From the NCBI GenBank assembly GCA_965203575.1, contig OZ241894.1, positions 2,956,322 to 3,020,321 on the forward strand: DNA of 64,000 bases. Direction: 5' to 3'. Made by a program: the position numbers and the translations under genes. The notes under the pieces are model-generated. The model worked only from the letters and a program-made list of their open reading frames with translations, made no database searches and was not told the origin of the DNA. Below, one piece after another: positions 4,872 to 61,020 of the stretch. This stretch comes from Candidatus Aldehydirespirator sp. (GTDB taxonomy: Bacteria; Actinomycetota; Acidimicrobiia; Acidimicrobiales; Aldehydirespiratoraceae). Numbering within the stretch: the first letter of the stretch is position 1; each line of letters begins with the position of its first letter.

Positions 4872-5978
4872 TCAGCTGATGACGGCCCGGTCGTGCCAGC
4901 GTCCGGCGGTCTCCGCGCGGGCCGCGTCGGTGAGCGGCACGTAGCCCACATCGCTGACCGCGGTGGATAGTGCCTCGGAGACGTAGAAGTCCACGTAGGC
5001 CACTATGGCGTCGTTGGCCGCGGCCTTGTCGGCGTTGACATAGATCCACAGGTCACGGCTGATGGGATACTCGTTCGAGGCAATGCTGTCCGGTGTCGGG
5101 CTGATGCAGCCGGCTCCACCGTCGATCTCGATCAGTTTGACACCCGTGGCGTTGACGGCGAATGCGAAACCGACCCAGCCCAGGCTCGTGTCGCTGGACT
5201 GGATTCCTTGAAGGATCACGTTGTCATTGCCTGAGGGGATGTAGTCGGTGCGGGTGGTGGCGTCCACTCCGGCTTCCTCGGCGAGGTCCTCGAGGACGAT
5301 CTCGATGAAGGAGTCGAAGGTTCCGGACTCCTCGCCGGGTCCGAAGATGTCCAGCGGGGCGTCGGGCAGGCCCGCGGAGGCCTCGGCCCAGGTGCTGGTG
5401 CCCTCGCCGTTGGGGCCGATCAAATCGAAGAGTTGATGGAAGTTCAGACACTCGACCGCGCCGTTGTTGGCGTTGGTCATGACCGCGATTCCGTCGATGC
5501 CCACCTTCAGCTCGATGACGTTGTTGATGCCGTTGGCGAAGCAGTCCTCCTTCTCGGAGTCCTTGATCTGGCGGGAGGCGTCGGAGATGTCGGTCTCGCC
5601 CGCGCAGAACAGCTTGAAACCGTCGCCGGTGCCGGGACCGTCAACAGTCACCGACACATCCGGGGCCGCGTCCTCGAACAGTTCGGCCACCCGGATCGAG
5701 ATCGGCTCAACCGTCGACGAACCCGAGATGTTCACCTCCCCCGAGACCGTCGAGGGGTCGACAGCGGGCTCGGCCATCTCTTCTTCGGTCATGGCTGCGA
5801 CTGTCGTGGTCGGCGCGGCGTCGGCAGCGCCGGTGTCGCCGGTGTCGGCAGTGCCGGTGTCGGAGGCGGCCGATGGGGTAGAGGTGTCTTCGTCGTCTCC
5901 GCCGCATGCTGCGGCCACTAGCGAGAAGCTCACGATGATCACCGGCAGCCAGAGGAGCCGGCGCCTTGAGTTGCGCAC
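4872..5978 (-). CDS. pstS: Phosphate-binding lipoprotein PstS
   Basis: 368-aa ORF with GTG start 5978..5976 and lipobox LVAAACGG. It has an acidic Thr/Asp-rich linker followed by a periplasmic-binding-protein body, and is the first gene of the pstSCAB order. Confidence 0.88.
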   Translation of the reverse strand: MRNSRRRLLWLPVIIVSFSLVAAACGGDDEDTSTPSAASDTGTADTGDTGAADAAPTTTVAAMTEEEMAEPAVDPSTVSGEVNISGSSTVEPISIRVAELFEDAAPDVSVTVDGPGTGDGFKLFCAGETDISDASRQIKDSEKEDCFANGINNVIELKVGIDGIAVMTNANNGAVECLNFHQLFDLIGPNGEGTSTWAEASAGLPDAPLDIFGPGEESGTFDSFIEIVLEDLAEEAGVDATTRTDYIPSGNDNVILQGIQSSDTSLGWVGFAFAVNATGVKLIEIDGGAGCISPTPDSIASNEYPISRDLWIYVNADKAAANDAIVAYVDFYVSEALSTAVSDVGYVPLTDAARAETAGRWHDRAVIS

Positions 5979-6078
5979 TTAGATGTCCCTCCCTTGGGAA
6001 ATGGCATGGCAAGCCCGCACCTGTTGCGGGCCGCAGGCAAGTTAGATGGGGCAAGGTTTCAGACAGCCGGGGCCACCG

Positions 6079-6121
6079 TGAAGCGGGAGTGAATGCCGGT
6101 GAACGGCAGGTGAATTTGTCA
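6079..6121 (-). promoter_or_regulatory. PHO-box-like array: four direct GTGAA (minus strand TTCAC) units phased at 11, 10 and 11 bp upstream of pstS
   Basis: Plus strand reads GTGAAGCGGGA GTGAATGCCG GTGAACGGCAG GTGAATTTGTC, with units starting at 6079, 6090, 6100 and 6111. On the pstS strand these read (G/A/C)TTCACnnnnn, resembling OmpR/PhoB-family direct-repeat operators. The array lies about 100-140 bp upstream of the pstS start. Confidence 0.6.
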
Positions 6122-7336
6122 GGCCAAGTCGTCCAGTGCGTCCTGGAGACGGCCCCGGTTGAAGCTGCTGACCTTCTCAACGACGGTCACGCCCGCGCCG
6201 TCGAGCAGTATCAGGTTGGGGTTGCCGGCCCTGTAGTGGCGCCAAGCGTCGTTGGACTCGCTCCACAGCGTGTGGGGCGGACCCCCAGCAGAGGCCACGA
6301 AGCTCTCGGCCTGGGCGCGGGTGTCCGATCCGCCCACGCCTATGACGATGACCTTGCCCTCGTTGTCTCGGGCGAACTGCCCGACGGGCCCTGCTTCGGC
6401 CCGGCAGATCGGTCAATGGGGGGCCCAGAACCAGAGCAACAGGGGCGTCGAGCCGTCCACGAAGTCGCGGAGGTTGACGGTCGCTCCCGTGCGCACATCG
6501 ATCATGTCCTGAGCCGGCACGTCGGTCTCGATGACCGGCGCGGCGGTGGTTGTGGGCGCGGCGGTCGTCGTTGGTGCGGCGGTGGTTGTGGGCGCGGCGG
6601 TGGTTGTGGGCGCGGCGGTTGTCGTGGTCTCGGCTTCAGCCGCCGCGGCCGCTTCGGCTTCCGCGGCGGCGGCTGCGGCTAGCGCCTCGGCCTCGGCGGC
6701 TGCGGCTTGAGCCTCGGCCTCGGCGATTGCGGCCAGGGCGGCGGCCTCCTCAGCTTCGGCGGCGGCTAGAGCGGCTGCCTCAGCCGCCGCGGCTTGGGCA
6801 GCCGCTTCTGCTTCGGCCGCGGCCTGCGCTTCGGCGGCGGCTTGGGCGGCTGCTTCAGCCTCCGCGGCGGCTTGGGCTGCGGCTTCGGCTTCGGCGGCGG
6901 CTTGGGCGGCTGCGGCGGCAGCCTCAGCCTCAGCTTCGGCTTCGACCTCGGCCTCCGCCGCGGCTCTAGCCGCGGCCGCTTCAGCTTCGGCTTGTGCTGC
7001 TTCGGCTTTGGCGGCGGCTTGGGCTGCTTCTGCTTCGGCCTCGGCTGCCTCGGCCGCGGTTCTGGCCGCCTCCGCCTGGGCTGCTTCTGCTTCGGCGGCG
7101 GCTTGGGCGGCTGCCTCCGCATCGGCGGCAGCGGCGGCTTCTGCTTCGGTGGCGGCTTGGGCGGCTGCTTCGGCTTCGGCCTCGGCTATGAGAGCGGCGT
7201 CATCGGCCGCGCTGGTGGTAGGCGTCTCGGCGGTGGCACCGCTGCCGGAGCTTGGCTCGTCGCTGCCGCAGGCCGCGGCCGCAAGAGCCACGGCCATGAG
7301 CACGGCGACGATCCGGGCGGGGTACGGCATCTTCAT
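6119..7336 (-). CDS. TlpA/ResA-like thioredoxin-fold lipoprotein, predicted selenoprotein (UxxC), with a long Ala/Glu-rich and (TTTAAP)5 spacer
   Basis: ORFs 6413..7336(-) and 6119..6337(-) are in one frame, joined through TGA 6415..6413. The joined sequence reads ...PLLLWFWAPH-U-PICRAEAGPVGQFARDNEGKVIVIGVGGSD...LILLDGAGVTV. Lipobox LAAAACGS. TGA occupies the first Cys position of the FWAxWCxxC motif. Confidence 0.7.
6368..6407 (-). promoter_or_regulatory. Candidate bacterial SECIS: two adjacent hairpins 11-49 nt downstream of the in-frame UGA of gene 6119..7336
   Basis: Minus strand after TGA: GGGCC-GAAGCAG-GGCCC (extendable by CTGCC/GGCAG), then TCGGGC-AGTTC-GCCCGA. The paralog has hairpins at the same offsets. 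Confidence 0.5.
6537..6626 (-). repeat. 5 x 18-bp tandem repeat encoding (TTTAAP)5
   Basis: Units ggcgcggcggtggttgtg start at 6537, 6555, 6573, 6591 and 6609. Units 1 and 4 are identical and the others differ at a few positions. Confidence 0.9.
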
Positions 7337-7339
7337 CGC

Positions 7340-7945
7340 TCAGGTTAGGGCAGCAAGCTGGTCGCTGAGCCTGGCTGCGTCGAAACTGCCGGGGCTGTCG
7401 TCGGCCAGGTTGCCGCCGCTGTCGAGCAGCCGCACGCTCGAGTTCCTCCCAACACCGAAGTGGCGCCACGACTCGTTGGAGTCACTCCACAGCATGGTGA
7501 AGGTGGTTCCGGTCTGGGACACGAACCGCTCGGCATAGGCGAAGTCGTCCTGGGCGCCGATACCCACGACCTTCACCTTGCCGGCGTTGTCTTGAGCGAA
7601 CTGCTCAAGGGCCGGAGCCTCTCTCCGGCAGGTCGGTCAATGGGGCGCCCAGAACCACAAGAGCAGAGGCGTCTCGCCGCTCACCAGCGACTGGAGATTG
7701 ACGGTCTCACCCGTGTACACGCTGACCATGTCGAGGTCGGGCACGTCGCCGGCCGCACTGGCAGCGGCGTCAGGAGCTGTCGCATCGGCACCGGTGGCGG
7801 CCTCTTCGGTGGTGATCGTGACGTCGACCGACCCGCAGGCGGCTGCCACGAGGGCGACCATCACCGCGCAGACAACGAATCGGACGTTCATTCGTCCTCG
7901 GATCTTCATTCGTCCTCGGATCTTCATTCGCCTTTCGATTCTCAT
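7340..7945 (-). CDS. TlpA/ResA-like thioredoxin-fold lipoprotein, predicted selenoprotein (UxxC); start ambiguous among four in-frame ATGs (7945, 7927, 7909, 7891)
   Basis: ORFs 7637..7987(-) and 7340..7576(-) are in one frame, joined through TGA 7639..7637. The joined sequence reads ...PLLLWFWAPH-U-PTCRREAPALEQFAQDNAGKVKVVGIGAQDD...VRLLDSGGNL. Lipobox LVAAACGS. ATG 7945..7943 overlaps the upstream gene's stop (ATGA). Confidence 0.7.
7591..7629 (-). promoter_or_regulatory. Candidate bacterial SECIS: two adjacent hairpins 11-49 nt downstream of the in-frame UGA of gene 7340..7945
   Basis: Minus strand after TGA: GCCGGAG-AGAGG-CTCCGGC (7629..7611), then CTTGAGC-AGTTC-GCTCAAG (7609..7591). Both stems are 7 bp perfect. 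Confidence 0.55.
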
Positions 7946-7958
7946 TCGTCTTTGCTCT
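7887..7958 (-). repeat. 18-bp tandem repeat (2 perfect + 2 degenerate copies), each carrying a purine-rich tract plus an in-frame ATG
   Basis: ttcattcgtcctcggatc at 7887..7904 and 7905..7922, with degenerate copies at 7923..7940 and 7941..7958. The minus-strand unit reads GATCCGAGGACGAATGAA. Confidence 0.9.
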
Positions 7959-8562
7959 TGCCGAGAGCCTTCTGCTCTTTCTTCCATGCCCGCACCCGTT
8001 GTAGCGCCTCCGGGCTGTCGATGTCGGCCACCGACCGGGGCTCGCTGTCGGCGAAGGCTCCGGCCTGCGCCTCCCAGCCGTCGGGACGGACGCCGAAGCG
8101 CTTGGCGAGCACGGCGGTCAGGATCCGGGCCTTCTCGTCCCCGTAGCCGGGGAGGTCCCGCAGTCGCCCGAAGAGATCCTCGCCGTTCGCCGCAGCGTTC
8201 CAGACCGCCCCGGCGTCGCCGTCGTAGTGATCAGCAACATGGCGGCACAGGGCCTGCATCCGTTTGGCCATCGAGGTCGGGAACCGGTGCAGCGCCGGCT
8301 TGGCCCTCACCAGGTCGGCGAAGGCATCGGGGTCCCGCTCCGAGATGTCGTGAGCGTCCAACCCGGCTCCGAGCCGCTCCGACAGGCGGAAGGGTCCCAT
8401 TAATGCCCACTCCATCGGGATCTGCTGGTCGAGCTGCATTCCCAGCAGCAGCGCCAGCGGGTCCGTGTTGAGCAGGCGGTCGGCGGCCTCGTCCCCGGTG
8501 ACCGCCAGGGTGCCCGTCCCGGCGTTCTGCGCTTGATTCTCCGTACCCACTGCCTGATTCAC
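7942..8562 (-). CDS. HhH-GPD-type base-excision DNA repair family protein
   Basis: 206-aa ORF with GTG start overlapping the aceE stop (GTGA). The DLPGYGDEKARIL hairpin-helix-type segment and overall similarity, from memory, point to actinobacterial HhH-GPD-type proteins. Confidence 0.6.
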   Translation of the reverse strand: MNQAVGTENQAQNAGTGTLAVTGDEAADRLLNTDPLALLLGMQLDQQIPMEWALMGPFRLSERLGAGLDAHDISERDPDAFADLVRAKPALHRFPTSMAKRMQALCRHVADHYDGDAGAVWNAAANGEDLFGRLRDLPGYGDEKARILTAVLAKRFGVRPDGWEAQAGAFADSEPRSVADIDSPEALQRVRAWKKEQKALGKSKDE

Positions 8563-11321
8563 TTCGCGGAGGATAACCGTGCGCCGGTGTCCGGGTGGCC
8601 GGGGTCGTCGCGGTCGACGTCGATGCCGTACCGGTCAATGGCGGCCGCCACCTCGTCCGGTGACACCTCGCCCGACTCCATCAGAGCCGACAGCACGGCC
8701 AGCACGATGTGCGGCCCGTCGACCTCGAAGAATCGCCGCAGCGCCTCCCTCGTGTCGGAGCGGCCGAACCCGTCGGTGCCCAACACGTGCAGCGGCCTCG
8801 GCGTGAAGCGGGCGATCTGGTCGGGAACCAGGGTCATGAAGTCGGTCACGGCCACGATCGGCCCGTCCGAGTCGGACAGCCTCCGGGTCACCATCGGCAC
8901 GACGGGCTCGGAGTCCGGGTTCAGCCGGTTGCGGCGCTCCACGTCCAGCGCCTCCCGCCTCAGACTCTGGTACGACGTGGCGCTCCAGAGCTCGGCCGAG
9001 GTGTCGTGATGCTCGGCCAGCAGCGCCTGAGCCTCGAGCGCGGCGCCCACCGACGCTCCCGAGAACAGGATGGTGGCCGAGCGTTTGCGGCCCCCGGGAC
9101 CGTCGTCGAACTTGTACAGGCCGCCGGTGATGTCGGAGTCGGTCACGTGGTCGGGACGGGACGGCTGCCCGTAGTTCTCGTTGTAGATGGTGATGTAGTA
9201 GAAGACGTCGGTGCCGTCGGCGGCGTCCGGCGGGTACATCCGGTGGAGGCCCTCGTCGACGATGGCGCCCAACTCGTAGGCGAAGGCCGGGTCGTAGGCC
9301 TCGCACGCCGGCACCGTCGAGGCCAGCACATGGCTGTGGCCGTCCTGGTGCTGGAGCCCCTCGCCCAGCAGCGTCGTGCGGCCCGCGGTCGCGCCGATGA
9401 GGAACCCCCGGGCCCGGGCGTCGGCCGCGGCCCAGATCGAGTCGCCCACCCGCTGGAAGCCGAACATGGAGTAGAAGGCGTAGAAGGGCACCATGGGCAC
9501 GCCGAGGTTGGCGTAGGACGTGGCCGCGGCCAGCCAGCTGGCCAGCGAGCCGCACTCGGTGATGCCCTCCTCGAGGATCTGGCCGTCGGTCGACTCGCTG
9601 TAGCTCAGCAGCAGGTCATGGTCCACCGGCTCGTAGAGCTGGCCATGGGGCGCGTAGATCCGGAACTCCCGGAACAGCGAGTCCATGCCGAAGGTGCGGG
9701 CCTCGTCGGGCACGATGGGCACGACCCGCCGTCCGAAGCTCTGGTCCCGCATCAGGTCGCGCAACAGGGCCGTGAACGCCATCGTGGTGGAGACCTCGCG
9801 CCCGCCGGAGCCCTTGCGCATGTCGATGAAGGGCCCGTCGGCGGGGAGGGCGATGGGGCGGCGGTCCCGCACCACCCGCCGCGGCACCGCGCCGTCGAGG
9901 GCGCGGCGGCGGTCCATCATGTAGCGGATCTCCTCCGAGTCTGGGGGCGGCCGGTAGTAGGGCGGGATCCCGTCGGCGAGGTCTGCTTCGTCGATCTCGT
10001 CCTCCATGTGCAGCCGCGAGCGCAGTTCCATCAGCTGCGTGGTGGTCATCTTCTTGATCTGGTGGGTGGCGTTGCGGCCCTCGAAGCCCTCACCCAGGGT
10101 CCATCCCTTGATGGTCTTGGCCAGGATCACGGTGGGCTGGCCCTTGACTTCGGTGGCGGCCTTGAACGCGGCGTACACCTTCTGGTAGTCGTGGCCTCCC
10201 CGGGGCAGGACCCGCAGATCCTCATCGCTGAGGTGGTCGACGAGCTTGCGCAGGCGGGGGTCGGGGCCGAAGAAGTGCTCCCGGATGTAGGCGCCGGTCT
10301 CCACCGCGTAGCGCTGGTACTCGCCGTCGACGGTGGTGGCCATCTTGTTGAGCAGGGCCCCGTCGGTGTCGCGCATCAGCAGCTCGTCCCACCTGGTGCC
10401 CCAGATCACCTTGATGACGTTCCAGCCCGCGCCGCGGAACACGCCCTCGAGTTCCTGGATGATCTTGCCGTTGCCCCGCACCGGGCCGTCGAGGCGCTGG
10501 AGGTTGCAGTTGACCACCCACTTCAGGTTGTCGAGGTCGTTGCGGCCGGCCAGGGCGATGGCCCCCAGGGTCTCGGGCTCGTCGCACTCGCCGTCGCCCA
10601 GGAAGCACCACACCGTGCTGTCGGAGGTGTCGTCGATGCGGCGGTTGTGCATGTACCGGTTGAAGCGGGCGTGGTAGATGGAGTTGATCGGCCCGAGACC
10701 CATCGACACCGTCGGGTACTCCCAGAAGTCGGGCATCAGCCGCGGGTGGGGGTAGCCCGACAGCCCGTTGCCGCCCACCTCCATCCGGAAGTTGTCGAGC
10801 TCCTGCTCGCTCAGGCGGCCCTCCAGGTAGGCCCGGGCGTACACGCCGGGAGCGGCGTGGCCCTGGAAGTAGATGTGGTCGCCGACCAGCCCGTCGTCCT
10901 TGCCCTTGAAGAAGTGGTTGAAGCCCACCTCGTACAGGGAGGCCGACGAGGCGAACGTGGACAGGTGGCCGCCGATCCCGTCGGCCGTCTTGTTGGCCCG
11001 GATGACCATCGCCGCCGCGTTCCAGCGGATGAAGCGGCGGATGCGCCGCTCGACCTGTTCGTTGCCCGGGAAGAAGGGCTGCTCGGAGGCGGGGATCGTG
11101 TTGATGTAGGGCGTGGACGTGGTCGGCGGCACGCCCACCCGCTGCTCGTTGGAGCGCTCGAGGAGCTTGGCGACTATGTAGCGGGCCCGTTCCCGTCCGC
11201 CGGCCGCGATGATGGCGTCGAGCGAGTCGATCCATTCCTGGGTCTCGGCCGGGTCGATGTCCGGAAGTTGGCGCAAAAAGTTGTCGGCCACCGCCCTCCA
11301 TGATGGCAGCAAAGCACGCAT
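8559..11321 (-). CDS. aceE: Pyruvate dehydrogenase E1 component (homodimeric AceE type)
   Basis: ORF 8559..11543(-) trimmed to ATG 11321..11319 (MRALLPSWRAVADNFLRQLPDIDPAETQEWIDSL...). About 920 aa with ThDP-binding region GDGECDEPE and a transketolase-like body. The start is uncertain by a few codons. Confidence 0.9.
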   Translation of the reverse strand: MRALLPSWRAVADNFLRQLPDIDPAETQEWIDSLDAIIAAGGRERARYIVAKLLERSNEQRVGVPPTTSTPYINTIPASEQPFFPGNEQVERRIRRFIRWNAAAMVIRANKTADGIGGHLSTFASSASLYEVGFNHFFKGKDDGLVGDHIYFQGHAAPGVYARAYLEGRLSEQELDNFRMEVGGNGLSGYPHPRLMPDFWEYPTVSMGLGPINSIYHARFNRYMHNRRIDDTSDSTVWCFLGDGECDEPETLGAIALAGRNDLDNLKWVVNCNLQRLDGPVRGNGKIIQELEGVFRGAGWNVIKVIWGTRWDELLMRDTDGALLNKMATTVDGEYQRYAVETGAYIREHFFGPDPRLRKLVDHLSDEDLRVLPRGGHDYQKVYAAFKAATEVKGQPTVILAKTIKGWTLGEGFEGRNATHQIKKMTTTQLMELRSRLHMEDEIDEADLADGIPPYYRPPPDSEEIRYMMDRRRALDGAVPRRVVRDRRPIALPADGPFIDMRKGSGGREVSTTMAFTALLRDLMRDQSFGRRVVPIVPDEARTFGMDSLFREFRIYAPHGQLYEPVDHDLLLSYSESTDGQILEEGITECGSLASWLAAATSYANLGVPMVPFYAFYSMFGFQRVGDSIWAAADARARGFLIGATAGRTTLLGEGLQHQDGHSHVLASTVPACEAYDPAFAYELGAIVDEGLHRMYPPDAADGTDVFYYITIYNENYGQPSRPDHVTDSDITGGLYKFDDGPGGRKRSATILFSGASVGAALEAQALLAEHHDTSAELWSATSYQSLRREALDVERRNRLNPDSEPVVPMVTRRLSDSDGPIVAVTDFMTLVPDQIARFTPRPLHVLGTDGFGRSDTREALRRFFEVDGPHIVLAVLSALMESGEVSPDEVAAAIDRYGIDVDRDDPGHPDTGARLSSAK

Positions 11322-15198: not shown

Positions 15199-16608
15199 GT
15201 GAGCGACGCAGCACACGACGTGATCGTCATCGGCGGCGGGCCGGGCGGCTATGCCGCGGCCCTGTACGGCGCCAGCGCGGGCCTCGACGTCGCGGTGGTC
15301 GAGAAGAGCAAGGTGGGGGGCACCTGCCTGCACGTCGGCTGCATACCGGCCAAGGAGCTCCTCGAGGCGGCCTCGGTGTACCGCACGGTGGCGAGGGCGG
15401 CCGAGTTCGGGGTGGGCGCCGGCGAGCCCAGCCTCGACTGGTCAACTGTGCTGGACCGCAAGCAGCAGGTCATCGACAAGATGATGGCCGGGCTGTCGTC
15501 GGTGCTGGGACAGCGCAAGGTGACGATCTATGGGGGCGTCGGCGCCCTCGGCCCGTCCGGCACGGTTCTGGCGACCGGGGCTGACGGCTCCGAGCACACG
15601 CTGTCCGGAGGTTCGATCATCCTGGCCTCGGGGTCGACTCCCCGGACCATCGGGGGCTTCGACGTTGACGGCGCGCTGGTGGTGACTTCCGACGAGCTGT
15701 TCTCGATCGGCAGGCTGCCGGCGGAGGCCGCGGTCATCGGTGGCGGCGCCATCGGCTGCGAATTCGCGTCGATGATGGGCGACTTGGGAACCAAGGTCAC
15801 CGTTCTGGAGGCCCTTCCCGACATCCTGACCGGCTGCGATGTCGAGGTGTCCAAGGTAGTGAGGCGGTCGTTCCGCAAGCGGGGAATCGAGGTGCACACC
15901 GGCGTGACGGTGCACGGCCACGAACCCCGCCCGGACCGCTCCGGCACGGTGGTCTCCTTCGGCGAGGGCAAGCAGGTCGACGTTGAGATGGTCGTGGTGG
16001 CGGTGGGCCGACGGCCCCGCACGGAGAACCTGGGACTCGACGCAGCCGGAGTGGAGCTGGACGACCGCGGCTTCGTGGCGGTCGACGGCCGCTGCCGCAC
16101 GACCGCCGAGGGCGTGTGGGCCGTGGGCGACGTGGTCGACAGCCCGCAGCTGGCCCACACCGCCTTCGCCGAGGGCATGCTCGCCATCTGCGACATCCTG
16201 GGCGAAGACCCCGACCCGCTCGACTACCACGGCACGCCCTGGTGCATCTACTGCCACCCCGAGGTGGCCTTCGCCGGGCACACCGAGCAGAGCGCGATCG
16301 ACGCCGGATTCGACGTGGTGACCTCGATGCACCGCTACATGGCCAACGGCCGGGCCCAGATCCTGGGCGAGACCGAGGGCCTGGTGAAGGTGGTCGCCCA
16401 GAAACAGGCCGACGGCACCGGCGGCCGCATCCTCGGGGTTCACATGGCGGGGCCATGGGTGACCGAGCAGCTGGGCCAGGCCTATTTCGCGGTGAACTGG
16501 GAGGCGACGGTCGACGACGTCGCCCGTCTGATACAACCCCATCCGACCATGAGCGAGCTGTTCGGCGAGACGATCCTGTCGCTGACGGGTCGCTCGCTCC
16601 ACGGCTGA
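15199..16608 (+). CDS. lpdA: Dihydrolipoyl dehydrogenase (E3)
   Basis: 469-aa ORF with GTG start. FAD motif VIGGGPGGY, redox-active disulfide GTCLHVGCIPAK and C-terminal HPTMSE. Confidence 0.92.
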   Translation: MSDAAHDVIVIGGGPGGYAAALYGASAGLDVAVVEKSKVGGTCLHVGCIPAKELLEAASVYRTVARAAEFGVGAGEPSLDWSTVLDRKQQVIDKMMAGLSSVLGQRKVTIYGGVGALGPSGTVLATGADGSEHTLSGGSIILASGSTPRTIGGFDVDGALVVTSDELFSIGRLPAEAAVIGGGAIGCEFASMMGDLGTKVTVLEALPDILTGCDVEVSKVVRRSFRKRGIEVHTGVTVHGHEPRPDRSGTVVSFGEGKQVDVEMVVVAVGRRPRTENLGLDAAGVELDDRGFVAVDGRCRTTAEGVWAVGDVVDSPQLAHTAFAEGMLAICDILGEDPDPLDYHGTPWCIYCHPEVAFAGHTEQSAIDAGFDVVTSMHRYMANGRAQILGETEGLVKVVAQKQADGTGGRILGVHMAGPWVTEQLGQAYFAVNWEATVDDVARLIQPHPTMSELFGETILSLTGRSLHG

Positions 16609-16626: not shown

Positions 16627-18087
16627 ATGGCCGACGTCATGATGCCGCAGTTGGGAGAGACCGTCACCGATGGGACGATCACCCGATGGTTCAAGCAGGT
16701 AGGTGATGAGGTCGCCCTCGACGAGGCGCTCTTCGAGATCTCCACCGACAAGGTCGACACCGAGGTGCCGTCCCCGGTGGCGGGGGTGCTGTCGGAGATC
16801 CTCGCCAATGAGGGCGACCTTGTGGAGGTCGGGCAGGTCCTGGCCCGCGTCGGCGAGGCGGGAGACGCCCCGCCCTCCGAGCCGCCTGCGGCTGAGCCGG
16901 TGCAGGAAGTGGCCGAGCCGCCGTCTGCCCCCGACCCGCCGTCCGAAGTGGCCGAGCCGCCTGCGGCTGGGCCGGTGCAGGAAGTGGTGGAGCCGCCTGC
17001 CGCCCCCGACCCGCCGTCCGAAGCGGTTGAGACGCCAGCCGAGCCCGAGGAGCCGAAGTCCGCTGGAGCGTTCCGGGGGGCAGGGATCGTGCTGTCGCCG
17101 GTCGTGCGCCGCCTTATCAGCGAGAACAACCTCGATCCGTCCACGCTGACCGGCACCGGCCTCGGCGGCCGCATCACCCGGGCCGACGTCGAGCAGGCCA
17201 TAAGGGCCCGCGCCTCGAGCGAGGGCGAGACAGCCGCCGAGGCGACGCAGACCGCATCGGTGGCCCAAGCCGATGCGCCAGCGGAGCCCCAGCCCCGGCC
17301 GGATGCTCCTTCTGAGCCGAAGCCCTCGCCCCGGCGCCGGCGATCGGCCGTGCCCGCGGTTGTGGTCAGCAGCGGCGACAGCGTGGTGCCCCTCAACAAC
17401 ATCCGGCGGCGCACCGCGGAGCACATGGTGATGTCCAAGCAGACGTCGCCTCACGTCCTCACCGCCATAGAGGTCGACTACGAGGGCGTGGAGAAGGTCC
17501 GCCGGGCCGCCAAGCAGGCGTGGAAGGCGGAGGAGGGCTTCAGCCTCACCTACCTGCCCTTCATCGCCAGGGCCGTGATCGACGCCCTGCGCGACTATCC
17601 GCATCTCAATGCCAGCTTCGGAGGGGACGAGCTGGTGGTCCACGCCGGCGTCAATCTGGCCGTCGCAGTGGACATCGACTTCCAGGGGCTGCTGGCTCCC
17701 GTGATCCACGGTGCCGAGGGCAAGCGCCTCCGCCAGATCGCCCGGGACATCGTGGATCTGGCCAACCGGGCCCGCAGCCGCAAGCTCGGACCCGACGACC
17801 TGGCCGGGGGCACGTTCACCCTCACCAACGCCGGCCAGTACGGGACGATGATGCAGTTCCCGATCATCAACCAGCCCCAGGTGGCCATCCTGAGCACCGA
17901 TGGCGTGTCCCGCAAGCCGGTGGTGGTGACCGACACCTACGGCAACGAGTCGATCGCCATCCACTCGATGGGCGTGCTCGCCATGGCCTGGGACCACCGG
18001 GCGTTCGACGGCGCCTACGCCGCCGCGTTCCTCCACCGGACCAAGGAGATCATCGAGAGCCGCGACTGGGAGGCTGAGATCCGCTGA
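16627..18087 (+). CDS. Dihydrolipoamide acyltransferase (E2) with a single lipoyl domain
   Basis: 486-aa ORF with lipoyl-lysine motif EISTDKVDTEVPSP, a PSBD-like segment LSPVVRRLISENNLD and catalytic DHRAFDG. Confidence 0.9.
   Translation: MADVMMPQLGETVTDGTITRWFKQVGDEVALDEALFEISTDKVDTEVPSPVAGVLSEILANEGDLVEVGQVLARVGEAGDAPPSEPPAAEPVQEVAEPPSAPDPPSEVAEPPAAGPVQEVVEPPAAPDPPSEAVETPAEPEEPKSAGAFRGAGIVLSPVVRRLISENNLDPSTLTGTGLGGRITRADVEQAIRARASSEGETAAEATQTASVAQADAPAEPQPRPDAPSEPKPSPRRRRSAVPAVVVSSGDSVVPLNNIRRRTAEHMVMSKQTSPHVLTAIEVDYEGVEKVRRAAKQAWKAEEGFSLTYLPFIARAVIDALRDYPHLNASFGGDELVVHAGVNLAVAVDIDFQGLLAPVIHGAEGKRLRQIARDIVDLANRARSRKLGPDDLAGGTFTLTNAGQYGTMMQFPIINQPQVAILSTDGVSRKPVVVTDTYGNESIAIHSMGVLAMAWDHRAFDGAYAAAFLHRTKEIIESRDWEAEIR
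16879..17028 (+). repeat. 2 x 75-bp tandem duplication within the Pro/Ala-rich E2 linker
   Basis: Unit 1 at 16879..16953 and unit 2 at 16954..17028, encoding EPPAAEPVQEVAEPPSAPDPPSEVA and EPPAAGPVQEVVEPPAAPDPPSEAV. Confidence 0.85.
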
Positions 18088-18098
18088 GCTCGTCGCTG

Positions 18099-19832
18099 GT
18101 GGCCGCTGACCGGCCCGTGCTGCGGATCCGCTGGCTCGGCCGTGTGGCCTACAACGATGCCCTGGAACTCCAACGCCGCCTTCACGGCCACTCCGCCGAC
18201 GACCACCTTCTCCTGCTCGAGCATCCCCATGTGGTGACCCTGGGCCGCCGGGGCCGGCGCGAGCACCTGCTGGTCGACGTCGAAGCGCTGGGCGGCTCGG
18301 TGGTGGAGACCGACCGGGGTGGCGAGGTCACCTACCACGGGCCCGGGCAGCTGGTGGGCTATCCGATCCTCACCGTGCCCGGCCGGCGCGGCGGCGGGAT
18401 GGCGGACACCGCCGCCTACGTGGGCGGCGTGGAGCAGCTGTTGATCGACGTCCTGGCCGACATGGGACTGGAGGCGGGACGTCTCGAGCGTCACACCGGG
18501 GTGTGGGTCGACCCCGAGGGGCTGCGGCCCCGCAAGATCGCCGCCATCGGGGTGAGGCTGTCGCGGGCCCGCTCCATGCACGGCTTCGCGCTCAACGTCG
18601 ATCCCGACCTGGAGTGGTTCGCCCGGATCGTGCCCTGCGGGATCACCGGTCTGGGAGTGACCTCGCTGGCGGCTGAGGGCATCGACGTGTCGATGCGGGA
18701 AGTCGTGGACCTCGTGGCGCAGCGGGCTGCTGCGACATTGGGCCCGCACGGCCGCATCGACCGGGCTGATGTCGCCCACCGGGTGGCTCCTGCCGACATG
18801 GCCCAGTTCACCCGGGACGCGGCCAACGGCTCTGCTGATGCCGGCACGGCGACGGACGGCAGCCAAGCGGCCGGAGCCGCGGCCGAGGGAGTGTCGCTCC
18901 GCCTGCTGGGCCGCCTGGAGGCTGCCCGGCTGGACGGCGAGAGCCATGAGCCGGTGCCGCTGCGGTCACGCAAGCCGGAGTGGATGCGGGTGCCGCTCAG
19001 CACCGGGCCGACGTTCCACGAGGTCCGCTCCACGCTGCGCGGCCTCGACCTGGTGACGGTGTGCGAGGAAGCCGGATGCCCCAACATCTCGGAGTGCTGG
19101 AACGACGGCACTGCGACCTTCATGATCCTCGGCGAGCGCTGCACCCGGGCCTGCGGCTTCTGCCTGGTCGACACCCGCCGCCCCGGCCCTGTGGACACAG
19201 AAGAGCCGGAGCGAGTGGCCACCGCCGCGGTCCGGATGGGCCTCGAGCATGTAGTCGTGACGATGGTGGCCCGCGATGACCTGGTCGACGGGGGAGCGGC
19301 CGTCGTGGCGGAGACGGTGGCCGCGGTCCGGCGCCGCCTGCCCACCGCCCGTGTCGAGACGCTCATCAGCGACCTCGGCGGCGACGCCGACGCCCTCCAG
19401 ACCGTGTTCGATGCCCGTCCCGACGTGCTCAACCACAACATCGAGACCGTGGCCCGGCTGCAGCGGGCCGTGCGACCGTCGGCCGGCTATGCCCGCAGCC
19501 TGGCCGTGCTGGCCAGGGCCAAGGCAGCGGGACTGACCACCAAGTCGTCGATCATCGCGGGCATGGGCGAGACCCACGGCGAGGTGGTCCAGACCCTCGC
19601 CGACCTGCACGCAGCCGGAACCGACATCGTGACCATCGGCCAGTACCTGCGGCCCAGCGCCCGCCATCTGCCGGTTGATCGCTGGTGGCCGCCGGAGGCA
19701 TTCGAGCGGTGGAAGGAGATCGGCGAGTCGATGGGCATCAGCCATGTCGAGGCCTCGCCCCTGACCCGTTCCAGCTACCACGCCCGCCAAGCCGCCGACG
19801 CCGCCGTCGAGGCGAGCGCGGCACAAACCTAG
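18099..19832 (+). CDS. lipB/lipA: Fused octanoyltransferase LipB - lipoyl synthase LipA (single 577-aa ORF)
   Basis: GTG start 18099. LipB motifs RGGEVTYHGPGQLVGYP, KIAAIGV and IVPCGI. After a ~60-aa Ala/Gly-rich linker come LipA motifs RKPEWMRV, CEEAGCPNISECW and CTRACGFC (radical SAM). There is no stop codon between the two halves. Confidence 0.85.
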   Translation: MAADRPVLRIRWLGRVAYNDALELQRRLHGHSADDHLLLLEHPHVVTLGRRGRREHLLVDVEALGGSVVETDRGGEVTYHGPGQLVGYPILTVPGRRGGGMADTAAYVGGVEQLLIDVLADMGLEAGRLERHTGVWVDPEGLRPRKIAAIGVRLSRARSMHGFALNVDPDLEWFARIVPCGITGLGVTSLAAEGIDVSMREVVDLVAQRAAATLGPHGRIDRADVAHRVAPADMAQFTRDAANGSADAGTATDGSQAAGAAAEGVSLRLLGRLEAARLDGESHEPVPLRSRKPEWMRVPLSTGPTFHEVRSTLRGLDLVTVCEEAGCPNISECWNDGTATFMILGERCTRACGFCLVDTRRPGPVDTEEPERVATAAVRMGLEHVVVTMVARDDLVDGGAAVVAETVAAVRRRLPTARVETLISDLGGDADALQTVFDARPDVLNHNIETVARLQRAVRPSAGYARSLAVLARAKAAGLTTKSSIIAGMGETHGEVVQTLADLHAAGTDIVTIGQYLRPSARHLPVDRWWPPEAFERWKEIGESMGISHVEASPLTRSSYHARQAADAAVEASAAQT

Positions 19833-21820: not shown

Positions 21821-21897
21821 ACTGATTCAGGCGGTGCGGAGGCCTGCGCGCCGAGTCCTGGCTACGCCGGGCTCGGGCCGATGCGAGGAGGCCGACA

Positions 21898-22773
21898 GTG
21901 CCGAGAGTGATCTGGAAGGGATCGATCAGCTTCGGACTGGTCACGATTCCCGTGCAGCTCTTCAGCGCGGTGAGCCGCAAGAACGTGCGCTTCAACCAGC
22001 TCGACGCCGAGACGGGGGCCCGGGTGCGCCACAAGAGGGTGTCGTCGGCCGACGGGTCGGAACTGCCGCCCGAGCGGATCGTCAAGGGCTACGAGCTGCC
22101 TTCGGGCGACTATGTCACGGTCACCGACCGCGAGCTGGAGGAGCTGGCCCCGGTCGCGGTCCGCACCATCGACATCGACGCCTTCGTCGACCTCGCCGAC
22201 ATAGATCCCGTCTTCTACGACAGCGCCTACCACCTCGTTCCCGACGAGGCCGCGGCCAAGCCCTACAAGCTGCTGGCCGAGGCCATGGACGAGGCCGACA
22301 AGGTGGCGGTCTGCCACTTCGTGATGCGCTGGAAGCAGTACCTGGCCGCCGTCCGTCCCGTCGACGGGCGGCTGATGCTGTCGACCATGGTGTACGCCGA
22401 CGAGCTGGTGGCACCGGACGAGATCGACGGCCTTGACGGCCTCGGAGACATTGAGGTCGATGAGCGGGAGACGGCCATGGCCCACCAGCTCATCGTCGCC
22501 CTCGAGGCCGATTTCGAGCCCGACCGCTACACCGACTCCTACCGGGAGGCGGTGCTGGAGCTGATCGAGCGCAAGGCCTCCGGCGACACCACGGCCACGG
22601 TGGCCGCGGCGGCTCCGACCTCGGACACGGTCGTGGACCTGATGGCCGCGCTGGAGGCCTCGGTGGCGGCGGCCAAGGAGGCCCGCAAGCGTCACCCCAC
22701 CGGGGGCAAGGCCGCCGCGGAGCCGGAGGCGAAGCCCGAGGAACCGGCGAGGAAGATCCGCAAGTCGGCTTGA
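21898..22773 (+). CDS. ku: NHEJ DNA end-binding protein Ku
   Basis: 291-aa ORF. N-terminus VIWKGSISFGLVTIPVQLFSA is the hallmark of bacterial Ku. Basic C-terminal tail. Confidence 0.92.
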   Translation: MPRVIWKGSISFGLVTIPVQLFSAVSRKNVRFNQLDAETGARVRHKRVSSADGSELPPERIVKGYELPSGDYVTVTDRELEELAPVAVRTIDIDAFVDLADIDPVFYDSAYHLVPDEAAAKPYKLLAEAMDEADKVAVCHFVMRWKQYLAAVRPVDGRLMLSTMVYADELVAPDEIDGLDGLGDIEVDERETAMAHQLIVALEADFEPDRYTDSYREAVLELIERKASGDTTATVAAAAPTSDTVVDLMAALEASVAAAKEARKRHPTGGKAAAEPEAKPEEPARKIRKSA

Positions 22774-22810
22774 GAGGTCGAGCGGGGCGGGTCGCGGTTC
22801 GGGCGGATCA

Positions 22811-23728
22811 GTGAGCGCACCCGAGCGCGTGGCCGTCACCATCGATGGGCGCCGGCTGTCGGTCAGCAACCTCGACAAGGTCATGTACCCGCTGACCGGG
22901 TTCACCAAGGCGCAGGTGATCGACTACTACGTTCGGGTCGCGCCGGTGATGCTTCCCCATGTCGGCGACCGGGGTGTGACCCTGCGGCGCTGGCCCGACG
23001 GCGTGACCGCCGAATCGTTCTTCGAGAAGCGCTGCCCGAAGCACCGGCCCGACTGGGTTCCCACGTGCCGTGGCCCCGGCGACAGGGGAGGGCCGATCGA
23101 GTACTGCCGGCTCGACTCGGTGGCTGCGCTGGCCTGGTCGGCCAACCTGGCCGCGCTGGAGATCCACGCCCCGATGGCTCGCTGCGGCGACCTCGACGCT
23201 CCCACCATGGTCGTGTTCGACCTCGACCCGGGCAAGCCGGCCACGATCGTCGAGTGCTGCCAGGTGGCCCTTCATGTCCGCGACGTCCTGGAGTCGGTCG
23301 GGCTGGCGGGATGGCCCAAGACGTCGGGCAGCAAGGGGATGCAGCTCTACGTGCCTCTCAACCGGCCCCACTCCCACGACCACGCAGCCGGGTTCGCCCT
23401 GGCCGTGGCCCAGCTGCTGGAGAAGCGACTGCCGGCTCTGGTGGTGTCGGTGATGAAGCGCAGCCTGCGGCCTCGGAAGGTGTTCATCGACTGGAGCCAG
23501 AACGCCCGCTTCAAGACCACCATCGCCCCCTACTCGCTGAGGGGCCTGGATCGTCCCACCGTCTCCACGCCGATCACCTGGGACGAGGTGTCCGACGGCG
23601 CCGACGGGGAGCCGCTGACGTTCACTGCCCCCGAAGTGCTGGACCGTGTCGAGCAGTTCGGCGACCTGTTCGCCCCCACGCTCACGGTCGAACAGGACCT
23701 CCCCGCCCCGTCGCCTTCCTCCAGCTAG
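22811..23728 (+). CDS. ligD: Stand-alone LigD polymerase/primase domain protein (NHEJ)
   Basis: 305-aa ORF with LSNLDKVMYP, motif TSGSKGMQLYVPL and IDWSQN. No ligase or phosphoesterase domain is present in this ORF. Confidence 0.85.
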   Translation: MSAPERVAVTIDGRRLSVSNLDKVMYPLTGFTKAQVIDYYVRVAPVMLPHVGDRGVTLRRWPDGVTAESFFEKRCPKHRPDWVPTCRGPGDRGGPIEYCRLDSVAALAWSANLAALEIHAPMARCGDLDAPTMVVFDLDPGKPATIVECCQVALHVRDVLESVGLAGWPKTSGSKGMQLYVPLNRPHSHDHAAGFALAVAQLLEKRLPALVVSVMKRSLRPRKVFIDWSQNARFKTTIAPYSLRGLDRPTVSTPITWDEVSDGADGEPLTFTAPEVLDRVEQFGDLFAPTLTVEQDLPAPSPSSS

Positions 23729-28152: not shown

Positions 28153-28186
28153 GGCTAAATCCTGACAAGACAGGTAGGATTTAGCC
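28153..28186 (+). promoter_or_regulatory. AT-rich perfect 10-bp-stem hairpin abutting the ATG of the rhodanese-MoeB gene (RBS-occluding structure)
   Basis: GGCTAAATCC (28153..28162) and GGATTTAGCC (28177..28186) with a 14-nt loop containing CAGGTAGGA. ATG at 28187. Confidence 0.5.
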
Positions 28187-29347
28187 ATGGCGAGCTTCAG
28201 AGAACTATTGCAGCAGGCCAAGGCTGAGATCCGCGAGGTCGACACCGCCGGCGGCGAGCAGCTGCTGGCCGAGGGCTGGACCCTTCTCGACGTGCGCGAG
28301 CCCGACGAGTACGAGCAGGGCGCGATTCCCGGCTCCGTGCACATCCCCCGGGGCCAGCTCGAGTCGAGCATCGAGAACCGGGTAGCCGACCGGTCCACCC
28401 CGCTGGTGGCCATGTGCGCGGGCGGCGTGCGCTCAGCCTTCGCGGCCGTGACCCTTGAGCAGATGGGCTACACCGACGTGGTGTCCATGGACGGCGGCTT
28501 CAACAAGTGGAAGGACGAGGGCCGGGCCTGGGCGCGGCCCCGCACCCTGTCGCCCGACCAGCGCAACCGCTACCAGCGCCACCTGCTGGTGCCCGAGGTG
28601 GGCGAGGAGGGCCAGCTCAAGCTGCTCGACGCCAAGGTCCTGCTGCTCGGCGCGGGCGGCCTCGGCTCCCCGGCGGCCCTTTACCTCGCGGCCGCTGGAG
28701 TGGGCACCATCGGCATCATCGACATGGACGTGGTCGACGAGTCCAACCTCCAGCGTCAGGTCCTGCACAACGTCGACCGGGTGGGCGACCGCAAGGTGGA
28801 CTCGGCCAAGAAGACCCTCACCGCGCTGAACCCCGACGTCAACGTGGTCACCTACGACGCCCGGCTCGGCGCCGACAACGTCATGGAGATCCTCGACGGC
28901 TACGACGTGGTGGTCGACGGGGCCGACAACTTCCCGAGCCGCTACCTGCTCAACGACGCCTCGGTCAAGCTGGGCATACCGGTGGTCCACGGGTCGATCT
29001 TCCGCTTCGAGGGCCAGGTCACCGTGTTCGACCCCCGAAACGGGCCCACCTACCGCGACATGCTGCCCGAGCCGCCGCCGCCCGAGATGGCGCCGAGCTG
29101 CGCGGAGGCCGGGGTGCTGGGCGTGCTGCCCGGCATCGTCGGCAGCGTGCAGGCCCTCGAGGCCATCAAGCTGATCCTGGGAGTGGGGGATTCGCTGCGG
29201 GGCCGCCTGGTGGCCTTCGACGCGCTGGAGATGAGCTTCCGCGAGTTCAAGCTGCGGCCCGACCCCTCCAACGAGGTCACCTACGACAACCGGGACCGCA
29301 TCCAGGTCGGCGAACTCGACGGCCTCTGCATGCCGACGCTGTCATAG
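28187..29347 (+). CDS. Rhodanese (N-terminal) - MoeB/ThiF E1-like adenylyltransferase fusion (MoeZ-like function, inverted domain order)
   Basis: 386-aa ORF. Rhodanese active-site loop CAGGVRS at about aa 77-83. E1 domain motifs LLGAGGLGSP, DESNLQRQ and PSCAEAGVLG. Confidence 0.8.
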   Translation: MASFRELLQQAKAEIREVDTAGGEQLLAEGWTLLDVREPDEYEQGAIPGSVHIPRGQLESSIENRVADRSTPLVAMCAGGVRSAFAAVTLEQMGYTDVVSMDGGFNKWKDEGRAWARPRTLSPDQRNRYQRHLLVPEVGEEGQLKLLDAKVLLLGAGGLGSPAALYLAAAGVGTIGIIDMDVVDESNLQRQVLHNVDRVGDRKVDSAKKTLTALNPDVNVVTYDARLGADNVMEILDGYDVVVDGADNFPSRYLLNDASVKLGIPVVHGSIFRFEGQVTVFDPRNGPTYRDMLPEPPPPEMAPSCAEAGVLGVLPGIVGSVQALEAIKLILGVGDSLRGRLVAFDALEMSFREFKLRPDPSNEVTYDNRDRIQVGELDGLCMPTLS

Positions 29348-50922: not shown

Positions 50923-50929
50923 CTTGTTT

Positions 50930-50980
50930 CCCGCTCTTGTTCGCTGCGCTCACGGGCCGCTCGGGCCACGGCCTCGCTGA
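50930..50980 (+). repeat. REP-like element, single copy, upstream of accA
   Basis: CCCGCTCTTGTTCGCTGCGCTCACGGGCCGCTCGGGCC at 50930..50967, plus a GC-rich tail. Confidence 0.85.
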
Positions 50981-51093
50981 GCGCCTCGCGAATCCTAGTT
51001 AGGCACCGCCCATCCGCTCGGCCTCTGGTGAGAACATCACCGCATTGGATAGCCGATCGCGGCCCGGATCACACGGAATGTCCTCCGATGTCG

Positions 51094-60924: not shown

Positions 60925-61020
60925 CCCGCTCTTGTTCGCTGCGCTCACGGGCCGCTCGGGCCACGTCTCCCGCTCTTGTTCGCTGCGCTCACGGGCCGCT
61001 CGGGCCCGGGGCCTCGCCCG
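60925..61020 (+). repeat. REP-like element, two tandem copies downstream of ugd
   Basis: Identical 38-nt cores at 60925..60962 and 60969..61006. The second copy extends into CGGGGCCTCGCCCG. Confidence 0.9.

Follow-up and report, generated by a model that had tools for sequence, protein, structure and literature searches.

In-frame UGA codons in two tandem lipoprotein genes of Candidatus Aldehydirespirator: predicted UxxC selenoproteins with a conserved two-hairpin RNA structure

Two adjacent genes of Candidatus Aldehydirespirator sp. each carry a TGA codon where a thioredoxin-fold enzyme should have its catalytic cysteine, which raises the question of whether this codon ends the protein or is decoded as selenocysteine (Sec, U). 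The genes lie on the reverse strand of a 64,000-nucleotide stretch of contig OZ241894.1 (positions 2,956,322 to 3,020,321; assembly GCA_965203575.1), hereafter the window, and are termed gene 2 and gene 1 in order of transcription. An earlier note on this DNA had proposed that they encode UxxC selenoproteins. Our analysis makes it very likely that both are selenoproteins in which UGA is decoded as Sec within a U-P-x-C motif, and we hold with equally high confidence that they encode exported, lipid-anchored thiol oxidoreductases of the TlpA/CcmG/DsbE-DsbF type; both statements are predictions from sequence comparison. The analysis itself shows the recoded reading frame and the fold, the lipobox and the RNA structure, along with their conservation.

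Each gene contains one in-frame TGA, in the context ...LLLWFWAPH-TGA-PxCRxE. The open reading frames (ORFs) originally described, 6413..7336(-) and 7637..7987(-), do both end in PLLLWFWAPH at a TGA with the same frame open beyond it, as the sequence and its read-through translations bore out. The first terminates ...STPLLLWFWAPH at TGA 6415..6413 and resumes PICRAEAGPVGQFARDNEGKV... for 97 codons until a stop at 6121..6119; the second terminates ...ETPLLLWFWAPH at TGA 7639..7637 and resumes PTCRREAPALEQFAQDNAGKV... for 98 codons until a stop at 7342..7340. The identical peptide before the codon is followed by P-I-C-R-A-E in gene 1 and P-T-C-R-R-E in gene 2. The two thioredoxin domains share 51 % identity, in keeping with the argument of the earlier note that paralogues so diverged are unlikely to owe the same codon to decay. 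The start it had given for gene 2 needed correction: the ATG at 7987 sits within the upstream HhH-GPD gene in a different frame. The true start is more likely ATG 7945, which overlaps the HhH-GPD stop (7944..7942) as ATGA, an arrangement that is the same in the orthologous locus L001. Alternatively, translation may begin at the in-frame ATG 7927, 7909 or 7891, all created by an 18-nt tandem repeat (n-region MKIRGR-MKIRGR-MNVR) that occurs only once in the closest relative, L009. The product is 201 aa long from ATG 7945 and 183 aa from ATG 7891. Only 3 nt separate the stop of gene 2 from the start of gene 1.

Comparative data were used to examine the fate of this codon in relatives. When gene 2 (U replaced by C) was used as query against 5.8 billion proteins, only 13 hits were returned, comprising eight full-length Cys forms (P0001–P0008) reading WFWAPH-C-PxC and five proteins (P0009–P0013) that break off precisely at ...WFWAPH. 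At the DNA level the latter showed a TGA followed by a conserved frame of 98–99 codons, part of which gene callers report as a separate ORF of 72–97 aa, most without a Pfam hit; truncation of this kind had been foreseen. A scan of one genome per GTDB species with the pattern P[LV]L[LF]W[FA][WY]AP, from which the Sec codon was excluded, yielded 78 loci from species-representative genomes, nearly all of them metagenome-assembled genomes (MAGs) of Acidimicrobiales. The critical codon was TGA in 110 of 111 family copies and TGT in one, with no instance of TAA or TAG, and the tandem pair was conserved in many genomes. Beyond the TGA, every complete copy kept 96–104 open codons except L065, which has 167, and there was no frameshift or second stop among the 110 TGA copies, which represent 78 species. 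Ratios of non-synonymous to synonymous substitution (dN/dS; Nei–Gojobori, against the window copies) in the post-TGA region were 0.10–0.48 for gene 2 and 0.33–0.60 for gene 1, i.e. purifying selection. At the TGA column the homologues L041 and L087–L089 have Cys codons (TGT/TGC). Relatives therefore show either Cys or TGA with an intact downstream frame, and the frameshifts and stops that the earlier note had named as evidence against recoding have not accumulated.

These observations bear on the alternative that TGA is a true stop, so that each gene would yield a short N-terminal lipoprotein plus an internally started C-terminal fragment, or would be a decaying pseudogene. Gene callers give precisely such a split, as seen in P0009–P0013 and their downstream ORFs. 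The split would, however, sever the thioredoxin fold within its active site, and frame, Pfam and PDB matches and dN/dS values below 1 all continue over the TGA. The lack of disruption in so many copies, the consistent use of TGA and never of the other two stops, and the implausibility of identical decay in two such divergent paralogues also speak against it, and we consider a true stop very improbable.

A further alternative, that TGA has been reassigned genome-wide in this lineage (e.g. to Trp or Gly), has the in-frame TGAs themselves in its favour and nothing more. TGA is the commonest ordinary stop in the window, closing 26 of 39 confidently coding ORFs with high G+C at third codon positions (GC3), at points where full-length Pfam matches predict an end. 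Overall G+C content is 69 %, which also argues against reassignment. A simple screen for in-frame TGAs found no other same-frame coding stretch in the window broken by an internal TGA; its only other hits, at 16606 and 40393, lack a redox motif, and the former is the boundary of two adjacent genes. Reassignment was rejected on the stop-codon usage of the window, and its probability is negligible. Since this screen found no other such case in the window and the same TGA recurs in all but one of the family copies, the shared pattern is far beyond chance. Further candidates for in-frame TGA selenoproteins, sought in the window by the same screen and in the related loci by redox-motif context and hairpin-2-like loops (see below), were limited to extra paralogues of the same family. 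Some of these, in L031 (-) at 10903, L036 at 259 and L046 at 10109, have variant sites (WLYSPY-U-GFC and WFWVPH-U-PxC) with the same hairpin 2 motif.

With the TGA read as Cys, matches to the Pfam families Redoxin, AhpC-TSA, Thioredoxin_8 and Thioredoxin run across the codon. Gene 2 scored 53.2 bits for Redoxin (cut-off 26.6), 45.4 for AhpC-TSA and 32.2 for Thioredoxin_8; gene 1 was weaker, with 28.3 for AhpC-TSA (cut-off 26) and 25.7 for Redoxin, slightly under its cut-off of 26.6. The best matches among solved structures were Mycobacterium tuberculosis DsbF (3IOS, E 1.1e-14) and DsbE/Mpt53 (1LU4, E 8.8e-12), aligned over the whole domain with the U column against the first Cys of WCPTC/WCPFC. 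A joined thioredoxin fold with TGA at the nucleophilic Cys, as first proposed, is thus supported by both Pfam and structural alignment. Best scores for the NCBIfam equivalogs TlpA, ResA, DsbE (CcmG) and StoA were 27–42 bits against cut-offs of 123–359, all sub-threshold, and the genes were therefore not filed as TlpA, ResA or CcmG proper. The glutamate of CxxCxxE is invariant in the family, and the residue before the motif is His, not Trp, in Sec and Cys forms alike.

In both N-termini the n-region is positively charged, the core hydrophobic and the lipobox AAAC-GS, in line with the lipoprotein signal peptides reported by the earlier note. By pattern match, the lipoboxes VAAA-C-GS and AAAA-C-GS fit [LIVMFWSTAG]2-[LIVMFYSTAGCQ]-[AGS]-C, and 99 of 109 orthologues have a lipobox-like signal. 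From the lipidated Cys to U, the median linker length is 85 aa in copies of the gene 2 type and 253 aa in those of the gene 1 type. Gene 1 has a low-complexity stalk that separates the thioredoxin domain from the lipid anchor, and stalks of 83 to 363 aa are seen in orthologues. In L001, a spurious opposite-strand gene (264 aa, no Pfam hit) has been called over the upstream frame of the gene 1 orthologue.

The RNA 3' of the UGA was analysed in 98 distinct 75-nt sequences, numbered with the U of UGA as nt 1. The 79 nt after each of the window TGAs were more stable than shuffled sequences (z-scores −3.0 and −3.8), and nt +9 to +52 formed exactly two hairpins in all 98 sequences. Mean stability was −11.9 kcal/mol for hairpin 1 and −7.6 kcal/mol for hairpin 2, as compared with −3.9 and −1.7 kcal/mol for control windows in the same genes. 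The pairs of hairpin 2 (32–48 to 37–43) were formed in 98.4 % of cells of the alignment, whereas slid controls paired in 11–49 %, and RNAalifold on the 98 sequences recovered the hairpin 2 helix only. Its loop (nt 38–42, RGUUY) was AGUUC in 77 sequences, AGUUU in 19 and GGUUC in two, with G39, U40 and U41 invariant. Compensatory changes were frequent: pair 33–47 was C-G in 61 sequences, U-A in 31, U.G in two and unpaired in two, and pair 35–45 was A-U in 76, G-C in 16, G.U in four and never unpaired. Changes on both sides of a pair numbered 47 cells, as against 14.7 +/- 2.7 in shuffles, none of which (0/500) reached 47.

This covariation cuts across the genetic code. In hairpin 2, the change of GAG to GGG, which replaces Glu by Gly, goes with a synonymous change from GCU to GCC, and a CUU/CUC exchange, itself synonymous, goes with CAA/CGA, which exchanges Gln and Arg. 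The Ala codon of the stem is GCU in 82 of the 98 sequences although GC3 is about 0.9, and is GCC exactly when its partner is GGG. Because of this preference for GCU, codon choice in hairpin 2 reflects selection on the RNA and not on the protein. Hairpin 1 was scored per sequence, since its registers differ between subfamilies; it had at least 6 bp in 92 of the 98 sequences, formed by 69 different arm pairs in shifting register, and is therefore conserved in structure and free in sequence.

A SECIS-compatible hairpin with covariation does then follow the UGA, as the earlier note had expected of a Sec insertion sequence (SECIS). The published model of the bacterial element (bSECIS; PMC13188914) has a loop of 3–9 nt with G at either its first or its second position, a stem of 4–16 bp, a spacing of 16–37 nt and a minimum free energy of −7.5 kcal/mol or below. 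Hairpin 2 conforms to it with a 5-nt loop in which G at position 2 is followed by U, a stem of 6–7 bp and 34 nt from UGA to loop; the energy threshold was reached by hairpin 2 alone in 78 of the 98 sequences, and together with hairpin 1 in all 98. Hairpin 2 is accordingly our best candidate for a SelB-binding SECIS.

Homologues with a Cys codon served as controls. In L041 (TGT) hairpin 2 was lost, in L088 (TGT) both hairpins were lost and in L089 both were weakened, whilst L087 (TGC) had kept hairpin 2 and lost hairpin 1 and may represent a recent Sec-to-Cys switch. In place of EQFA, the peptide that encodes hairpin 2, Cys forms have the relaxed versions EELA, EEFA, EAFS or LELS. Because one or both hairpins were lost or weakened in the four Cys-codon homologues examined, the two-hairpin structure tracks UGA and not the protein. 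The nucleotide directly after UGA was C in 93 of 98 sequences, and UGA-C is a weak termination context.

Several results weigh against decoding of these codons as Sec. ARAGORN found no tRNA-Sec in the window or in 85 related loci, and Pfam scans of the approximately 39 window ORFs found no selA, selB or selD. There was no tblastn match to Escherichia coli SelA, SelB or SelD (queries validated as full-length matches to PDB 8UZW, 5LZB and 3U0O) in the window and the 85 loci, which at about 1.5 Mb cover less than 1 % of each genome and make this result uninformative rather than negative. The loop of hairpin 2 begins at +38, farther from the UGA than that of the E. coli fdhF SECIS, which lies at about +22. 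An Rfam scan of the window gave no hits, Rfam being without an applicable bacterial SECIS family, and no tRNAs were detected in the window. An 89-nt 'tRNA-Arg' reported by ARAGORN in L064 had no Rfam support and was dropped. Beyond these loci, Table S4 of Slaby 2017 lists SelA (two copies), SelB (one) and SelD (one) for the Acidimicrobiia sponge-symbiont bin76, and only SelD, without SelA or SelB, for the Acidimicrobiia sponge bin134. According to a 2026 preprint, selA, selB, selC and selD are present in all Actinomarinales genomes studied.

That Sec machinery was not found in the sequences examined supports a third alternative, in which the hairpins stimulate read-through of UGA without Sec, by a near-cognate tRNA (Cys, Trp or Arg) or some other recoding, to give a CxxC-like or inactive protein. 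The composition of bin134 also fits it, and RNA structure 3' of a leaky UGA-C can promote read-through. Were Cys the product, TGC or TGT would be the better codon, and still TGA is near-universal across 78 species; the codon falls precisely on the nucleophilic Cys, a site at which Sec/Cys exchange is the rule in known selenoproteins (PMC1088965 and PMC13188914); hairpin 2 fits the bSECIS model down to the G-U of its loop; and incompleteness of MAGs accounts for sel genes missing from single bins. Read-through without Sec is thus improbable, and the more radical reading, in which genomes without selA and selB use the signal for read-through that is independent of Sec, has a slight chance at most. 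We infer that the amino acid inserted is Sec rather than another, and that SelB would bind hairpin 2.

For Sec insertion we propose a mechanism whose steps, the RNA structure excepted, are taken from the standard bacterial Sec pathway. A ribosome at the UGA would meet the two-hairpin structure, itself observed, directly 3' in the mRNA. Hairpin 1 (about nt +11 to +31), variable in sequence and always paired, would be positioned at the mRNA entry channel, and hairpin 2 (nt +32 to +48; stem of 6–7 bp, RGUUY loop) would be bound by SelB. SelB.GTP.Sec-tRNA(Sec) could then outcompete release factor 2 (RF2) at the weakly terminating UGA-C. The full-length pre-protein would be exported and lipidated at its AAAC lipobox, with the linker (65–85 aa in gene 2, about 290 aa in gene 1) holding the catalytic domain off the membrane. 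There, the selenolate may attack disulfides or sulfenates of cell-envelope substrates, and the Cys of UxxC may resolve the resulting selenenylsulfide.

The substrates and redox direction of the two enzymes are likewise inferred. The TlpA (Bradyrhizobium), ResA/StoA (Bacillus) and CcmG/DsbE (Gram-negative bacteria) proteins, membrane-tethered reductants for the maturation of cytochrome c and Cu centres, share with the present family the fold, the extracytoplasmic tether and CxxCxxE, and are hit weakly in NCBIfam. The present genes differ from them in scoring far below the respective cut-offs (27–42 vs 123–359) and in having no cytochrome c maturation or CcdA genes nearby in the window. M. tuberculosis DsbF (Rv1677, 3IOS) and DsbE/Mpt53 (Rv2878c, 1LU4), exported actinobacterial CcmG-like proteins as here, share the block ...LWFWAP-x-C-P-x-C-x-x-EAP and the domain length, a likeness by sequence match; unlike the present proteins they have Cys instead of Sec and Trp instead of His before the motif, without RNA hairpins or recoding.

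It is quite possible, at somewhat less than an even chance, that the same selenoproteins act in the opposite direction to the TlpA/ResA-type reductases that the earlier note had seen in them, forming or isomerizing disulfides or reducing peroxides or sulfenates. DsbF and DsbE, the closest characterized relatives, are presented as disulfide-forming enzymes in the titles of the papers on them; no CcdA/DsbD electron donor is found nearby in the window; and the low NCBIfam scores for TlpA, ResA and DsbE point the same way. So does the cis-Pro column of the substrate loop, which is Pro in gene 1 (GNPNL, 6215–6235) and Ser in gene 2 (RNSSV, 7420–7440), the change to Ser being atypical for disulfide exchangers. 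Across an alignment of 105 members this column is Ser in 57 and Pro in 46, with gene-1-type copies keeping Pro and gene-2-type copies mostly having Ser. On the other side, the gene for one Cys homologue, P0004, immediately follows a gene of the DsbD_TM (CcdA-like) type, whose product is the electron donor that reductive TlpA/ResA enzymes usually have, and the invariant glutamate of CxxCxxE is typical of ResA and CcmG. As the cis-Pro loops are not alike, the two members of the pair probably act on different substrates or by different chemistry, as judged from sequence.

Selenoproteins of related kinds have been described. In PMC1088965 (Zhang, Fomenko & Gladyshev 2005; Sargasso Sea metagenome) and the 2026 review PMC13188914, UxxC TlpA-like 'thiol-disulfide isomerase-like' proteins (cd02966) and peroxiredoxin (Prx)-like proteins are established predicted selenoprotein families, and UxxC thioredoxin-fold selenoproteins have been predicted since 2004–2005. 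The former share with the present family, by motif and superfamily only, a TlpA-like fold, UxxC with Sec first, a marine origin, a bSECIS predicted to follow the UGA, and Cys homologues that are widespread. A term search of the text of both papers returned no Acidimicrobiales fixation, tandem pair, lipoprotein stalk or two-hairpin structure, all of which are present here. Prx-like selenoproteins have AhpC-TSA/Redoxin matches and Sec in a redox motif in common with our pair, which differs in having U-P-x-C after His (WFWAPH-U) instead of UGC and in lacking the PxxxTxxC peroxidatic motif. With the SECIS of E. coli fdhF and fdnG and the bSECIS consensus (PMC13188914, Fig. 2 legend), the structure shares an in-coding-sequence hairpin 3' of UGA, a small G-U apical loop and a spacing within 16–37 nt, and two family members even have the loop GGUUC. 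In contrast to E. coli, there are two consecutive hairpins, the conserved loop is at the far end of the spacing range, and hairpin 1 occupies the position of the minimal E. coli SECIS without a conserved loop except for a Glu codon.

The features of the locus are collected in Table 1.

Table 1. Features of the tandem gene pair and flanking genes, in window coordinates (hairpin positions relative to the U of UGA in the last column)
Feature	Coordinates	Strand	Details
Gene 2, full recoded ORF	7945..7340	(-)	TlpA/DsbE-like lipoprotein-type thioredoxin fold, predicted selenoprotein; active site U-P-T-C
Gene 1, full recoded ORF	7336..6119	(-)	405 aa, lipoprotein-type thioredoxin fold, predicted selenoprotein; active site U-P-I-C
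Gene 2 in-frame TGA, predicted Sec codon	7639..7637	(-)	aligned with first Cys of CxxC
Gene 1 in-frame TGA, predicted Sec codon	6415..6413	(-)	aligned with first CxxC Cys of homologues
Gene 2 hairpin 1	7611..7629	(-)	nt +11..+29: GCCGGAG / AGAGG / CUCCGGC
Gene 2 hairpin 2, SECIS-like, conserved loop	7591..7609	(-)	nt +31..+49: CUUGAGC / AGUUC / GCUCAAG
Gene 1 hairpin 1	6385..6403	(-)	nt +13..+31: CGGGCC / GAAGCAG / GGCCCG
Gene 1 hairpin 2	6368..6384	(-)	nt +32..+48: UCGGGC / AGUUC / GCCCGA; compensated G-C at pair 35-45
Gene 2 signal peptide and lipobox, MNVRFVVCAVMVALVAAA-C-GS	7835..7891	(-)	predicted lipidated Cys codon 7837..7835
Gene 1 signal peptide and lipobox, MKMPYPARIVAVLMAVALAAAA-C-GS	7268..7336	(-)	Cys codon 7270..7268
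Gene 1 low-complexity stalk	6537..7200	(-)	~190 aa Ala/Glu/Gln-rich, then (TTTAAP)x5; 18-nt repeat 6537..6627
Perfect 18-nt tandem repeat, 2.4 copies	7887..7930	(-)	duplicates GAGGA-type ribosome-binding site and ATG of gene 2
HhH-GPD superfamily gene	7942..8562	(-)	upstream; stop overlaps likely start of gene 2; same order in L001, L006
pstS (PBP_like_2 lipoprotein), then pstC, pstA, pstB	4872..5978	(-)	downstream of gene 1

The order on the same strand is aceE (pyruvate dehydrogenase E1), the HhH-GPD gene, gene 2, gene 1 and pstSCAB, and a promoter and terminator scan of 5800–8800 found nothing above chance. The HhH-GPD gene, of the endonuclease III superfamily, is translationally coupled (ATGA) to gene 2. 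In M. tuberculosis the ResA-like Rv3673c is tabulated in an operon with endonuclease III (PMC3792642), and an HhH-GPD/endonuclease III gene with a thioredoxin-fold gene may be an ancient actinobacterial pair. Cys-type homologues of other lineages (L087 6001–8056, L088 3362–5549) were observed directly upstream of pstS-pstC-pstA-pstB, like the window pair (4872–6119), and the more distant Sec forms in L002 and L005 between chorismate synthase and class II aldolase genes.

Over 18 kb, the window and OZ241903.1 ('Candidatus Aldehydirespirator sp.') are approximately 97 % identical. Elsewhere in the window there are genes for lipoate and 2-oxoacid dehydrogenase, Ku/LigD and an extensive polysaccharide cluster. 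In one uninterrupted frame at 18078–19829 (+), a LipB-type octanoyltransferase domain precedes LipA (LIAS_N and radical SAM), an apparent LipB-LipA fusion. At 21826–23725 (+), Ku adjoins a gene for a LigD primase-polymerase domain, both components of non-homologous end joining. The rhodanese-ThiF (MoeB/MoeZ-like) protein encoded at 28178–29344 (+) has no in-frame TGA; in some marine bacteria, MoeB constitutes a selenoprotein family (PMC1088965 and PMC13188914). Stretches of about 90 nt (60925–61017) and 64 nt (50929–50992) match non-syntenic sites in both orientations in relatives (L009 19361–19442 and 19934–20024; L011 13102–13165) and may be small dispersed repeats.

Proteins of this kind are already known as predicted UxxC thioredoxin-fold selenoproteins, and nothing here overturns current understanding. 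New, at least as far as a term search of the text of two selenoprotein papers showed, are the near-fixation of Sec in DsbE/DsbF-like lipoproteins across Acidimicrobiales, the conserved tandem pair whose cis-Pro loops diverge, gene 1's long stalk and the two-hairpin signal. On the basis of 110 TGA codons against one Cys codon among the closest 80 loci, we suggest tentatively, and as less probable than the assignment of the two genes themselves, that this DsbE/DsbF-type family is obligately selenium-dependent across the order Acidimicrobiales, its abundant marine and sponge-symbiont lineages included, and that it uses a lineage-specific bipartite recoding signal, which would be a distinct class of bacterial SECIS. 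In such a signal, a sequence-free 'roadblock' hairpin (+11 to +31) would be stacked on the RGUUY hairpin bound by SelB (+32 to +48). The 98-sequence alignment, with its compensatory changes within a coding region, is unusually good material for the definition of an actinobacterial SECIS and for a covariance model.

For annotation, all close relatives among the 5.8 billion proteins are either Cys forms or cut at the UGA. Sec forms end at this codon and their remainders are left as orphan ORFs of 72–97 aa, and therefore a whole envelope redox family is invisible in Acidimicrobiales genomes. If the UGA is decoded as Sec, a selenoprotein would be exported, presumably unfolded and via the general secretory pathway as its lipoprotein signal peptide implies, and then lipidated; export and lipidation of a selenoprotein have, to our knowledge, been predicted but never shown by experiment. 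The family Aldehydirespiratoraceae (formerly UBA11606; Acidimicrobiales) comprises sponge symbionts and free-living marine lineages, and Sec decoding would mean that widespread marine and sponge-associated actinobacteria need selenium for thiol chemistry at the cell surface.

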